From: a virus | IMG/VR virus record: IMGVR_UViG_3300045141_000130 | Coordinates: 1 to 64,000 of that record | Direction: 5' to 3' (one strand) | DNA length: 64,000 nucleotides | In this document: piece by piece, positions 51,208 through 58,583 of the stretch | How positions within the stretch are numbered: position 1 is the stretch's first letter | Layout: each line of letters opens with the position of its first letter | Position numbers and translations under genes: made by a program | Notes under the pieces: generated by a model | Database searches by the model: none | What the model saw: the letters and a program-made list of their open reading frames with translations, nothing else | Told to the model about the DNA's origin: nothing

Positions 51208-51347
51208 GACTTGGCGTGGCACGGCACGGCTGGGCTTGGCCTGGCGTGGCGTGGCCGGGCAAGCCATGGCTTGGCAAGGCATGGTTTGGCTGGGTCCGGC
51301 CTGGCAAGGCACGGCGCGGCAAGGTAAGGGTCCCTCGCAAGGGGGAC
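51208..51347 (+). ncRNA. GGY-NN pentamer tract 1 (about 24 units) with 3' GCAA-loop hairpin; candidate guide RNA
   Basis: tt GGC gt GGC ac GGC ac GGC tg ... GGT aa GGG then GTCCCTC-GCAA-GGGGGAC. Confidence 0.75.
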
Positions 51348-51472
51348 AAGTAGTACCCGCAATACAGCAGCCCCCCAGCATCCGTGCTGGGGGGCTGCTG
51401 GCGTTTTTCGGCGTATTACCCCCAGGCCAACCGGTCTGGGGTCCCTGCGTTTCTCCTGAGAGGAGAAAGCAG

Positions 51473-51841
51473 TTGAGCGACACCAGTGGTATCCAGCCCT
51501 TCTTCCAAGGCCTGGGGTCCTACCTCGGCGACTACGTCCGCCAGGCGACCGAAGCGTCCTCCTTCCACGTCGGTGACGGGGTGCGCTACCACGGCTCGAA
51601 GGTGGCCGACCACGGCTACTGGAGAGTCCAGGCCGTCCCCGGCAATGGGACGGTCGAGATCGGGCGGCGCGGGGAGCGCCGGTACCTGGTCGTTCGGCCG
51701 CAGTCGATCGACAACCTCCGCGACGAGGTCTGCCGACACTGCGACGCTGCCGAGGTCTGGCACTACGCGATGCGCGTCGACGACATCGTCGACGGGGATC
51801 TGCCGGTGCAGGACCTCTGCTACTCCTGCGAAAACAGGTAG
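51473..51841 (+). CDS. Hypothetical protein with SH3-like region and CxxC pairs
   Basis: AGGAG RBS, TTG start. Confidence 0.6.
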   Translation: MSDTSGIQPFFQGLGSYLGDYVRQATEASSFHVGDGVRYHGSKVADHGYWRVQAVPGNGTVEIGRRGERRYLVVRPQSIDNLRDEVCRHCDAAEVWHYAMRVDDIVDGDLPVQDLCYSCENR

Positions 51842-51857
51842 CAAACAGCAGCAACGC

Positions 51858-51910
51858 TTCAAGCCCCCCGGCCGCTCGGCCGGGGGGTTCCTGCGTGTCT
51901 GGAAAGGACA
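51858..51910 (+). repeat. 53-bp intergenic direct repeat, copy 1 (hairpin plus RBS)
   Basis: Near-identical to 52385-52437, differing only in the hairpin loop. Confidence 0.85.
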
Positions 51911-51915
51911 TGGCA

Positions 51916-52374
51916 ATGAGCAACACCAAGAAGCACCGAGGAAGGTTCGCCTTCCTCCTGGCGGGCATCATCACGGCCCTGCTGATCGCGTCGGCGTTCA
52001 GCGTCGGGTGGGTGTCCAACGCGGCGCCCGACCCGGTGCTGAGGCCGCAGCCCGCCGTCACCGTGCTGACCCACACGGTGCCCACCACCGTGCCCACCAC
52101 CGTGGTCCACACCCAGGTGGAGACGCAGACCAAGACGGTGACGCGGGTCAGCGCCTACTGCGCGGCGGCCATCGCGGATGCCGACGGCATCCAGGCCGAG
52201 TGGCTGCAGGTCGCCACCGACATGGGCAACGCCACCTCCGACATGGTCTACGGGGGGGCGAACGCCGCCAGCAACAGCGAGGTCGAGTCGGCCACCGCGC
52301 TGTTGAAGAAGTTGAACGACACCGACATCCCGCAGTACACCGCCGACAAGATCAAGTGCCAGGCGGGCGAGTAG
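51916..52374 (+). CDS. Membrane-anchored or secreted protein
   Basis: N-terminal TM helix, Thr/Val-rich linker, two Cys. Confidence 0.7.
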   Translation: MSNTKKHRGRFAFLLAGIITALLIASAFSVGWVSNAAPDPVLRPQPAVTVLTHTVPTTVPTTVVHTQVETQTKTVTRVSAYCAAAIADADGIQAEWLQVATDMGNATSDMVYGGANAASNSEVESATALLKKLNDTDIPQYTADKIKCQAGE

Positions 52375-55826: not shown

Positions 55827-55976
55827 CGCAGTCTCTGGCCCACCCTTCGGGGTGGGCCAGGGGTCTGCGATTTTTTGCGTTTCCGGGGAAAAGATGATCT
55901 TGAACCCTCCGATTGGTGTCGGAGGGTCGATTCATGCTGTCCGGAACCACCGGCAGCACCCGAAAGGAGGGCCGCT

Positions 55977-57332
55977 GTGACAACAGCGAGTCCCGAGCGC
56001 ATCGGAAATGCGCACACCGCAGTAGCGCGAGGTGCCGAGTTCGGCGACATCCTCGCGTTGCTCAACAAGCAGCAGGCCAGGAAGGTCGACATCGTCATTC
56101 CTGGCAGCAAACTGCTCGTCCGGGACGGCATGCTCGTCGTCGCCGACGACGTCGTCGACATGAGCGACGAAGGGGTGACCCGGGTCGGCGGCGAGTATTG
56201 GCCCACCACCTGGTTCGACGCCCACGTCGCCGAACGGTTGGACATTCCTGTTGCCTATCTGCGCCGCCTGCGCAACGGCAGGGAGATCGTCGGCACCAGG
56301 GGTCGCAGCCGCACCCTCGGCCCGCGACTGGACCTGTACGACAGCAACGTCAACGGGTTGTTCCGCGGCAACGACGACGTCCCGCCGGACCTGCGGAACT
56401 TCTACGCCCGGCTGCTCGTCCCCGACGACCAGGACACCAACGGCATCGCCTACGCGCTGATGTCCTCCAAGTACTGGAGGCTGGACAACTACGACGCGAT
56501 CATGGCCACCCTGTCCGGCATCCGCAAGGCCGGGATCGACCCGCTGTCGTTGCACATCTACGGCGACCTGTCGGAGACGAAGCTGTACCTGCACGTCCAC
56601 GCGCCGCAGGTGCTCACCGCCGCACCCGAACTGCTGCGCAACTACCGCAGCCCGTTCGACATCCAGGGCGAGGCAAGCAAACGCCAGGTTCCGGCCTACA
56701 CGCTGGAGCAGAGGGTGGCCATGGGCCGCCAGTGGCGGGAGACCCACCGGCTGGACGAACACATCCAGCCCGGCTCCGAACCGCTCGTCCACTCCGGTTT
56801 CCTGATCACCAACTCGGAGATCGGGCAGGGCCGCTGGTCCATCCAGAAGGAGATCGTCTTCCTGGCGTGCACCAACGGGATGACCTTGACGGCGGGCCGT
56901 TTCGAGCGGCGGCACGTCGGCAGCGACCAGGAGGAGGGCCAGGTCGAATGGTCGGCGGAAACCCGTGACGCCGAGTTGCAGTGGATCGTCTCCTCGACCG
57001 CCGACATCGTGGCCGATGCGCTCAACCCGGAATCCCTGGAGAACACCGTCACCGCCCTGGAGCAGAAGGCGGGGCGCACCGTGGACGACCCGCGACGCAC
57101 CATCGCGGTCGTCGCCCAGAAGCACCTGTTCAACAAGGACGAGGAGGAGGCGATCCTCCGCCACTTCGAGTTGGGTCAGGCCTTCACCAGTGCCGGTGTG
57201 GCGCAGGCCATCTCGTCCGTCGCCCAGATGTACGAGGACCCGGACCGGGCGCACAAGCTGACCGACGCCGCCATCCCCGCGATGGAACTCGTCCACTCCC
57301 TGAGAAGTACCGGGAGTCGGGCATCCCTCTGA
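55977..57332 (+). CDS. DUF932-like phage/plasmid protein
   Basis: AAAGGAGG RBS; ALMSSKY..LDN, GFLITNSEIG.G, LACTNGM and RRHVG motifs. Confidence 0.75.
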   Translation: MTTASPERIGNAHTAVARGAEFGDILALLNKQQARKVDIVIPGSKLLVRDGMLVVADDVVDMSDEGVTRVGGEYWPTTWFDAHVAERLDIPVAYLRRLRNGREIVGTRGRSRTLGPRLDLYDSNVNGLFRGNDDVPPDLRNFYARLLVPDDQDTNGIAYALMSSKYWRLDNYDAIMATLSGIRKAGIDPLSLHIYGDLSETKLYLHVHAPQVLTAAPELLRNYRSPFDIQGEASKRQVPAYTLEQRVAMGRQWRETHRLDEHIQPGSEPLVHSGFLITNSEIGQGRWSIQKEIVFLACTNGMTLTAGRFERRHVGSDQEEGQVEWSAETRDAELQWIVSSTADIVADALNPESLENTVTALEQKAGRTVDDPRRTIAVVAQKHLFNKDEEEAILRHFELGQAFTSAGVAQAISSVAQMYEDPDRAHKLTDAAIPAMELVHSLRSTGSRASL

Positions 57333-57713
57333 GACCTGGCAAGGCCGGGAGAGGCCGGGCGAGGCATGGCTAGCTTTGGCACGCAAGGGCGAGGCTTGGC
57401 TTGGCTAGGCGTGGCAAGGCGTGGCTAGGCGGGGAATGGCAAGGCGAGGTATGGAATGCCGAGGCGGTGCATGGCCGGGCTAGGCCAGGTTCGGCGCGGT
57501 ATGGCTCGGCAAGGCATGGCGAGGCTCGGTTGGGTCGGCCATGGCGAGGCAAGGCTAGGCGAGGCGCGGTGTGGCAAGGCGGGGTTCGGCAAGGTCAGGT
57601 TCGGCGTGCTCCGGTTTGGTATGGCCAGGTCGGGCTAGGCACGGTCGGGTCCGGTTCGGCGGGCCTGGGCATGGTATGGGCTCCCCGTAAGTCCCTCATT
57701 TGGGCCGGGGAGC
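57333..57713 (+). ncRNA. GGY-NN pentamer tract 2 (about 69 units) with 3' CCGTAAGTCC-containing hairpin
   Basis: Continuous 5-nt register from the stop codon to GGTATGGG (57673-57680), then GCTCCCC...GGGGAGC stem. Confidence 0.78.
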
Positions 57714-57748
57714 AAACAACAAATCCCTTGAGAGGAAAGGATTTTCGC

Positions 57749-58159
57749 ATGACAGGAGGACCATCAGACGGGGCGTACGAAGTCCTGAACACGATGCTTC
57801 ACGACATGCTTCACAGCCCGGGGGCGCAGGCCACGTTCAACATGGACACGCCGATGGCGACACTCATCGACACGTTCGATCTGGCCTTGCCGCCGGACTC
57901 CGACGAGAACTTCACCTGCGATCTGTGCGACCAGGTACACCGGGAGGGCCTGGACCGCATCGTCACCGCATTCGAGCCTGGCGAGCCACCCACCGACGGC
58001 AGCCCCGGGTACGTCAAGATGATCGCCGCCGCGGGCAAGAGCCCCACAGATCTGGCCATGGAGAAACTCGACCGACCGAGGGTGATCCTGGTCCTGTACT
58101 CGTGCCGCAACTGCTCGCTGGAGATCCAGCAGGGGATGGACCGCCAGGAAACCTTCTGA
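57749..58159 (+). CDS. Hypothetical Zn-finger protein (two CxxC)
   Basis: GGAAAGGA RBS; CDLC and CRNC; lies between two pentamer tracts. Confidence 0.65.
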   Translation: MTGGPSDGAYEVLNTMLHDMLHSPGAQATFNMDTPMATLIDTFDLALPPDSDENFTCDLCDQVHREGLDRIVTAFEPGEPPTDGSPGYVKMIAAAGKSPTDLAMEKLDRPRVILVLYSCRNCSLEIQQGMDRQETF

Positions 58160-58583
58160 GACGTGCTGTGGCATGGCGTGACTCGGTGGGGCGAGGCGGG
58201 GCATGCTTTGGCGCGGCGAGGCGGGGCTAGGCGTGGCCAGGCACGGCGCGGTTCGGCTCGGCGGGGCGAGGCGAGACATGGCAGGCCAAGGCAGGGCACG
58301 GTGCGGTTCGGCTGGCCATGGCTTGGTGTTGGCACGGCTGGGCTCGGCAGGGAATGGCTAGGCCTGGTTTGGTGCGGCCGGGAGTGGCTCGGCTAGGCAA
58401 GGTCGGGTTAGGCGTGGCTCGGCGTGGCAAGCCTTGGCGCGGCGCGGTGTGATCAGGTTGGGTGTGCCGCGGTTTGGCTTGGTCGGGTTAGGCGCGGCGT
58501 GGCATGACTTGGCTCGGTGTGGCTCGGCATGGAAGGCCAGGGCACGGTTTGGGTTCTCCGTAAGTCCCTTCGGGCCGGAGAAC
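58160..58583 (+). ncRNA. GGY-NN pentamer tract 3 (about 78 units) with 3' CCGTAAGTCC-containing hairpin
   Basis: 5-nt register to GGTTTGGG (ends 58553), then GTTCTCCG...CGGAGAAC stem. Confidence 0.78.

Follow-up and report, generated by a model that had tools for sequence, protein, structure and literature searches.

The first 64 kb of IMG/VR virus record IMGVR_UViG_3300045141_000130 (73,357 bp, 68% GC), the whole stretch of 64,000 nt analysed here and called the window below, carry eight tracts of a five-nucleotide repeat, GGYNN, together with vipr, a gene for a 227-aa RAMP-type protein. Five of the tracts (T4 to T8) adjoin vipr; the other three (T1, T2 and T3) lie on the same strand, 10.0, 3.6 and 2.7 kb from the gene at 61314. 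We conclude that T1, T2 and T3 are very probably vrRNA arrays, that is, guide arrays of a VIPR (Viral Interference Programmable Repeat) system, in a soil virus of actinophage-like character. The initial annotation of this region had pointed to three further GGY-NN tracts, equal in grammar and strand to those beside a ‘RAMP-like’ effector gene and up to 10 kb away from it. They are indeed present, with 23, 69 and 77 units, all on the + strand.

Repeat tracts and their boundaries

Among the 355 units of the eight tracts, G occupies position 1 in 100% and position 2 in 88%, and position 3 is C or T in 95%. Positions 4 and 5 (NN) are near uniform, and 66 different pentamers occur. The pattern (GGYNN)x5+GGY has 93 matches in the window, none of them on the − strand or outside the eight tracts, against an expectation of 0 from 100 dinucleotide-preserving shuffles. 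A sliding scan over all 73,357 bp of the genome found just the eight tract regions and one trivial 10-nt stretch on the − strand. The NN strings differ between tracts, as had been noticed earlier: the best 8-unit match is 12/16, compared with 11–13 in 20 shuffles, so that there is no duplication between tracts above the shuffled level.

The tracts are non-coding, since the GC content of T2 is flat over codon positions (0.68/0.67/0.72, versus 0.65/0.45/0.87 in a neighbouring gene) and both T2 and T3 contain stops in all six frames. Neither translation into conserved proteins nor variation of the repeat units by slippage alone, the two outcomes that the initial annotation had set against its own reading, was what we found; in T2 the NN vary while the register is kept over 69 units. 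Folding of whole tracts gave z-scores of −4.1 and −4.8, which are uninformative about the repeat part because the tail and terminator hairpins were included. We also considered G-x-Y units (GCC, GCT, GAC) as punctuation that would split the long tracts into guides of 9–16 units; ten gaps of 9–16 units were counted against a null mean of 6.6 (P = 0.09), and this division is unsupported.

All eight tracts end alike, in a last unit GGUAU (GGUAA in T1, GGUUU in T3) followed by GG and then by a hairpin. The hairpin starts at nt 8, exactly 7 nt past the last unit, in 8/8 tails, and always opens with a G-C pair. At stem positions 2–7 two to three different pair types are seen; the stem sequence varies by tract with the pairing kept, a compensatory pattern. 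A more elaborate form is shared by the tails of T2, T3 and T6. The ends that had been assigned to the distant tracts from the outset, 51347, 57713 and 58583, coincide exactly with the 3′ ends of their closing hairpins.

On the 5′ side the three distant tracts begin with TGAGAC (51205–51210, 57330–57335 and 58157–58162), in which TGA is, as had been stated, the stop of an upstream + strand open reading frame (ORF) ending at 51207, 57332 and 58159, respectively; the ORF before T2 is 55875–57332 (phrog_1362). A longer form of the motif, CYTCTGAGAC, is seen in T2 and T3 and also, with a gap of 2 nt, in T4; upstream of the tract starts, the similar sequences are CCCTCTGAGAC (T2), ACCTTCTGAGAC (T3) and ACCTTCTGA--C (T4). 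The boundary motif of T4 lies past the upstream stop codon instead of overlapping it. GAC is the first unit of 5/8 tracts, versus 8/350 internal units (binomial P = 3e-7). At the tract starts of other loci TGAGAC was found in 0/253 cases and GAC in the preceding slot in 14/253. Its absence from all 253 of these starts means that TGAGAC is no family-wide signal. The shared boundary suggested in the initial annotation thus holds locally and fails for the family at large; among the sequences compared, the CYTCTGAGAC start motif is specific to this phage.

Strong terminator-like sites on the + strand occur only at 51365–51400, 53306–53325, 55852–55868 and 62432–62465, and a scan of 49.8–63 kb gave no promoter-like site. 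Given this placement, T2 and T3 are perhaps in one unit with vipr, and T1 in a separate unit. T1 would be transcribed behind ORF 50500–51207 and end at its own terminator, while T2 and T3 would belong to a ∼6.6-kb unit (about 55.87–62.47 kb) also holding T4–T8 and vipr. Transcripts of all tracts would then be loaded in trans by the single Vipr. The arrangement is consistent with co-transcription of the tracts in 3′ untranslated regions (UTRs) of upstream genes.

Table 1. Tracts, tails, terminator-like sites and vipr in the window
Feature	Coordinates	Strand	Description
T1 repeat tract	51208–51329	+	23 GGYNN units (22 GGY); first unit GAC-TT directly after TGA of ORF 50500–51207
T1 tail hairpin	51330–51347	+	junction GGUAAGG before it
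Terminator-like hairpin	51365–51400	+	intrinsic type, 16 pairs and T-run; closes the putative transcription unit holding T1
T2 repeat tract	57333–57679	+	69 units in one unbroken register (62 GG, 58 GGY); starts GAC-CT
T2 tail	57680–57713	+	8-bp outer stem, UAA, inner stem-loop; GGUAUGG before it
T3 repeat tract	58160–58552	+	77 units (33 + 44; 66 GG, 63 GGY), one 1-nt register slip at ∼58330; starts GAC-GT after TGA of ORF 57749–58159
T3 tail	58553–58583	+	outer stem, UAA, inner stem as in T2 and T6; GGUUUGG before it
T4 tract and tail	60405–60575	+	26 units; tail hairpin 60548–60575; start CCTTCTGAC, like T2 and T3 starts
T5 tract and tail	60598–60786	+	31 units; tail hairpin 60760–60786
T6 tract and tail	60779–61146	+	62 units, several register slips; tail hairpin 61100–61146
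T7 tract and tail	61172–61294	+	19 units; tail hairpin 61269–61294; directly upstream of vipr
vipr	61314–61997	+	227 aa, RAMP/Cas7-like fold, only copy in genome
T8 tract and tail	61992–62258	+	48 units; tail hairpin 62239–62258; starts inside last codon and stop of vipr (GAC-TAG)
Terminator-like hairpin	62432–62465	+	strong; likely end of a unit perhaps running from about 55.87 kb

The Vipr protein and published systems

Neither Pfam nor NCBIfam has a match for the 227-aa protein, which hits only a PHROG of unknown function. A profile of 76 homologues matches one solved structure, PDB 36pp ‘SUSP1 Vipr protein’, with E = 2.1e-17; the single sequence matches SUSP1 Vipr with E = 4.2e-7, the G-loop GVGD[FW]RPxFGRFSV being aligned. 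The AlphaFold2 model of the protein has a pLDDT (predicted local distance difference test) of 93, and its top PDB matches by Foldseek are Csm3 and type VII Cas7 (E about 1e-6); the label ‘RAMP-like’ given at first was therefore correct. According to the preprint text (10.64898/2026.04.26.720927), SUSP1 Vipr contacts G1 by H17 and D177, G2 by R138 and W178, and Y3 by R179. The residues H17, R138, D177, W178 and R179 correspond to H52, R168, D209, F210 and R211 here, with the aromatic F210 in place of W, and R168, D209 and R211 are conserved at ≥90% in the family alignment. By homology the protein is thus a Vipr, a minimal Cas7-like RAMP that keeps the residues contacting G1, G2 and Y3. Its metagenomic family is very large: one search gave 4,854 hits, and a second gave 926 cluster representatives at 50% identity. 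Vipr proteins 68–74% identical to this one are encoded on contigs of 60–77 kb.

The guide system inferred in the initial annotation is, going by the preprint texts available, already named and characterised. VIPR was first described in 2026, in four bioRxiv preprints (10.64898/2026.04.26.720920, 10.64898/2026.04.26.720927, 10.64898/2026.10.15.759431, 10.64898/2026.10.21.760802). In these texts, vrRNAs consist of 9–16 YNNGG repeats followed by a structured tail, one Vipr protomer binds per repeat, and the protomers form a helical filament. The GGY bases are described as sequestered and the NN as pairing with double-stranded DNA, with every third target base skipped; the outcome is that competing satellites, prophages or phages are silenced at the level of transcription. 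VIPR has been proposed as an ancestor of CRISPR RAMPs, and a language-model survey recovers VIPR arrays by their 5-nt period (10.64898/2026.10.21.760802).

The VIPR text available centres on two proteobacterial type II systems, those of Escherichia phage SUSP1 and a Pseudomonas fulva prophage, with compact loci and guides of 9–16 repeats. Like these, the present locus lies in a viral genome in which no self-target was found, encodes a Vipr homologue with the same GGY-contact residues and has GGY/NN pentamers on the vipr strand both up- and downstream of the gene; the vrRNA tails of SUSP1 (our locus L125) also start with the GGTATGG-G junction seen here. Unlike these two, its arrays are spread among unrelated genes over 11 kb, as opposed to a compact two-gene locus, and its genome has 68% GC and is actinophage-like. 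The Vipr is only remotely similar to that of SUSP1 (single-sequence E = 4e-7).

Further parallels are found in vrRNAs of other layouts. Solo vrRNAs are reported to redirect the Vipr of another element, for example those of satellites that redirect the VIPR of a helper phage (10.64898/2026.10.15.759431). As reported there, those of F5 satellites and of VIPR-null SUSP1-like phages lie away from vipr and are trans-loaded, as T1–T3 would be; those elements, however, are without vipr and hold one or two short vrRNAs, whereas this phage has its own vipr and distant arrays of 23–77 units. The staggered and hammerhead-interspersed vrRNA arrays of the same preprint, compared by their figure legends, resemble the present ones in their long GGYNN runs, but T2 stays in a single register throughout its 69 units, T3 slips only once and no hammerhead is found in 48–64 kb. 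The Class 1 CRISPR-Cas backbone, in which Cas7/Csm3 assembles on CRISPR RNA, shares with this system the RAMP fold with thumb and G-loop and the periodic base flipping along the guide. It differs in that here there is no CRISPR array, no other cas gene and no spacer-repeat structure, and in that the period is 5 nt with two informative bases, not 6 nt with five, in a virus-encoded system.

Related loci and genomic surroundings

Runs of twelve perfect units were found by an IMG/VR scan in at least 119 loci, and Vipr is encoded in 84/119 of them as judged by hidden Markov model search (single-sequence tblastn found it in 38/119). In the Vipr-bearing loci 233/235 tracts are on the vipr strand, and all five loci found by way of the protein (locus GC 53–73%, Vipr 51–65% identical) have same-strand tracts adjoining the gene. 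Homologues of 19 other + strand genes of this phage were absent from the 124 loci searched. Since vipr is the sole gene that this phage shares with the loci, gene and tracts behave as a module. Locus L002, one of the five found by way of the protein, has three stand-alone units, each with TTGACA-17-TATACT/TATAAT, about 15–20 repeats and a hairpin with T-run; this promoter–tract–terminator layout indicates that tracts are transcribed units in relatives.

Long tracts in one register, of 50–137 units, are present in eight other loci (L014, L036, L068, L069, L072, L119, L132 and L140; Vipr about 50–58% identical) and seem to be a trait of a clade. In two of these (L014 6311–7010 and L140 10693–11377) a single tract of 137 units directly follows vipr and ends in one terminal hairpin; parts of both tracts have low NN complexity and internal block repeats. 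Locus L111 has 123 units in 12 register segments, and such many-register loci look like the published staggered arrays. Relatives with 47–71% identical Vipr show that tract content turns over sharply, the number of units ranging from about 3 (L126) to 94 (L132). A tandem duplication of an 11-unit (55-nt) block inside a tract of L069 (record G004 23661–23760) suggests that arrays grow by duplication of whole-unit blocks.

Two relatives have additional features. Locus L126 (Vipr 65% identical) is almost devoid of tracts, with about three units upstream, and carries the operator-like palindrome GGTTCCATGATGGAAC three times before the locus genes (40–80, 940–960 and 1370–1390). In L005, the closest IMG/VR relative (Vipr 65% identical), the region 10700–10760 between two tracts resembles by eye a tRNA acceptor/T-arm minihelix (GGGACG ... 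GGTTCGACTCCCGG ... CGTCCC). It has no ARAGORN or Rfam call and is thus unconfirmed, and four or five related loci gave neither an Rfam nor a tRNA hit; if real, the minihelix could recruit RNase P/Z to separate vrRNAs.

The − strand of the phage genome carries structural and replication genes, including portal, a terminase domain, a collagen-like fibre protein and prim-pol, and a block of small + strand genes of unknown function starts at 50.5 kb. The portal is 46% identical to Arthrobacter phage portals, and the genome is actinophage-like. The phage DNA is present in soil metagenomes: the 9 runs listed for 52301–62300 are all soil-metagenome DNA contigs. Three contigs (X3, X4 and X7) are variants of the stretch; contig joints within and between tracts, at a depth of 2–5, may be repeat-caused assembly effects. 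Megablast of 50000–59000 against the phage collection gave no near-identical match, and syntenic relatives were not found, the 352-aa and 485-aa neighbours having no relative in IMG/VR. Rfam (E ≤ 1, 48–64 kb) gave only four sub-threshold rows at chance level, with no hammerhead and no other family, and a tRNA search of the phage region found none. With respect to CRISPR arrays, there was only a sub-threshold CRISPR-DR9 match (− strand, 52383–52417, 23 bits versus a gathering score of 45); the Tandem Repeats Finder (TRF) output contains no array of direct repeats, and the single RAMP gene is the sole cas-like gene in the genome.

The neighbours of vipr have no Pfam, NCBIfam or informative PHROG match, and clustering of vipr neighbours over the loci found no real gene in more than six, the clustering being swamped by pseudo-ORFs read from tracts. 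The 136-aa ORF between T2 and T3 (57749–58159) has two CxxC pairs and is zinc-ribbon-like by eye, with no family match; within the extended VIPR region, its product is a candidate for an accessory or DNA-binding role. On the 3′ side of T8 (62255–62465) a promoter-like TTGCGT-17-TACAAT is followed by a ∼170-nt structured stretch that ends in the terminator at 62432–62465. It has no ORF, no tRNA call and no Rfam family (a weak ‘sar’ row falls on the terminator only), lacks conservation among the fetched loci and may represent a small RNA of unknown kind beside the VIPR locus. Beyond the window, at the right end of the genome, a 2,133-aa ORF on the − strand (66611–73012) has a coding-type GC content at third codon positions of 0.91.

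Interpretation of the long and distant tracts

We assign the locus to VIPR because of the profile match to SUSP1 Vipr, the conserved GGY-contact residues and the Cas7-like fold; protein, repeat, tail, strand and viral context are all those of a VIPR system. That the RAMP-like protein has its RNA partner in the tracts is likewise supported, by the homology to SUSP1 Vipr, the single copy of the gene, the published GGY/NN guide mechanism and the transcribed units in relatives.

Targets were sought by the published rule, in which NN pair with DNA and every third target base is skipped. No self-target was found in the 73-kb genome, every window size being at the level of shuffled guides: for T2, the best 12-unit window scored 18/24 (null maximum 18) and the whole tract 56/138 (null mean 56.8). 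Two 12-unit windows in related loci (T6 on L104 and T8 on L097) scored 20/24 versus a maximum of 19 in only 6 shuffles; they were taken as chance, because neither extended at 16 units. Over 107 records, the GC content of NN tracks that of the surrounding genome (rho = 0.55), which fits guides matched to DNA of similar composition.

Several observations weigh against reading the distant tracts as VIPR guide arrays. Each tail here closes 19–77 units, for the most part far outside the 9–16 given for SUSP1-clade type II vrRNAs in the published text. The tail is a nested hairpin with no evident pseudoknot, a difference from SUSP1. No vap-like accessory gene, a typical though not universal neighbour of vipr, was recognised, and no vap1 homologue was found, the best match of SUSP1 vap1 or of the DSL-LC04 downstream gene in this genome having E = 0.07. 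In the other loci (median length about 8 kb) 0/235 tracts lie more than 4 kb from vipr and 2/235 at 2–4 kb, which makes T1, at 10 kb, atypical; in four whole records all listed matches cluster within 0.1–2.8 kb. None of the 9 listed runs holding 52301–62300 is an RNA run. The search of 125 related loci (1.18 Mb) gave no convincing target above shuffled guides. Finally, the NN of this phage have about 49% GC, below the expectation from codon positions 1–2 of a 68% GC genome, and the dinucleotides TA and TG (6.7% each) exceed the frequency expected from Tyr or Cys/Trp codons; some of the NN are perhaps not directed at in-frame coding targets.

Three other explanations were weighed. The long dispersed tracts could be decoys or sponges, GGY-rich RNAs soaking up the Vipr of rival phages or buffering the phage's own. 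Their great length (69 and 77 units), the near-uniform NN, the lack of a found target and the published redirection of another element's Vipr by solo vrRNAs (10.64898/2026.10.15.759431) agree with such a role. Still, we consider it improbable: the phage has an intact vipr of its own, flanked by tracts of the same grammar and tail, and the correlation of NN with genome GC is that of sequence-matched guides. The blank in the target search says little here, since only 73 kb and 1.18 Mb were covered.

Action of the tracts as DNA, through strand-asymmetric, G-rich two-tetrad G-quadruplexes, R-loops or a protein-binding array, is suggested by the + strand composition of 44–47% G versus 23–26% C, with GG recurring every 5 nt. 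It is very improbable in view of the compensatory variation of the terminal hairpins, the promoter–tract–terminator units of relatives and the orientation of nearly all tracts with vipr, and solved Vipr structures are described as binding the repeat as RNA (10.64898/2026.04.26.720927).

That the tracts are neutral slippage products or assembly artefacts is hardly credible: TRF does list many short overlapping periods, and low-depth metagenome contigs do have unit-multiple replacements (for example 15 nt in place of 50 nt at 57415–57466), but the units are not mutual copies, no similarity between tracts exceeds shuffles, register is kept over 69 units while NN vary, and contig X2 from an independent soil run has 0 differences over its listed pieces.

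We therefore return to vrRNA arrays as the preferred reading of T1, T2 and T3. Long, dispersed arrays with a phage-specific 5′ boundary were not found in the VIPR text available, although VIPR types I and III–VII and the staggered arrays, as covered by the supplements, may already include long or dispersed ones. Each tract of 23–77 units would be either one very long guide or be cut into shorter ones. More tentatively, we suggest a possible view of this Vipr clade in which a single tail caps an uninterrupted guide of 50–137 repeats (69 in T2, 77 in T3, 137 in L014 and L140), either as a filament of tens of protomers that would read a gapped target of 200–400 bp or as a precursor cut into many tail-less guides by an undescribed processing step. 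In the same speculative proposal the arrays of this phage would have spread as cassettes with their own CYTCTGAGAC boundary, which supplies the upstream stop, so that guide arrays would come to lie in the 3′ UTRs of unrelated early genes.

On the reading of T1, T2 and T3 as vrRNA arrays, the same protein–RNA pair also occurs in soil phages of high GC, where the tracts are longer by a factor of five to ten, and arrays can lie kilobases from vipr, behind unrelated genes. Surveys restricted to the flanks of vipr, or capping arrays at 40 units, would undercount guides. If the long tracts are single guides, the expected footprint and specificity of VIPR change; if they are processed, an unknown maturation step exists.

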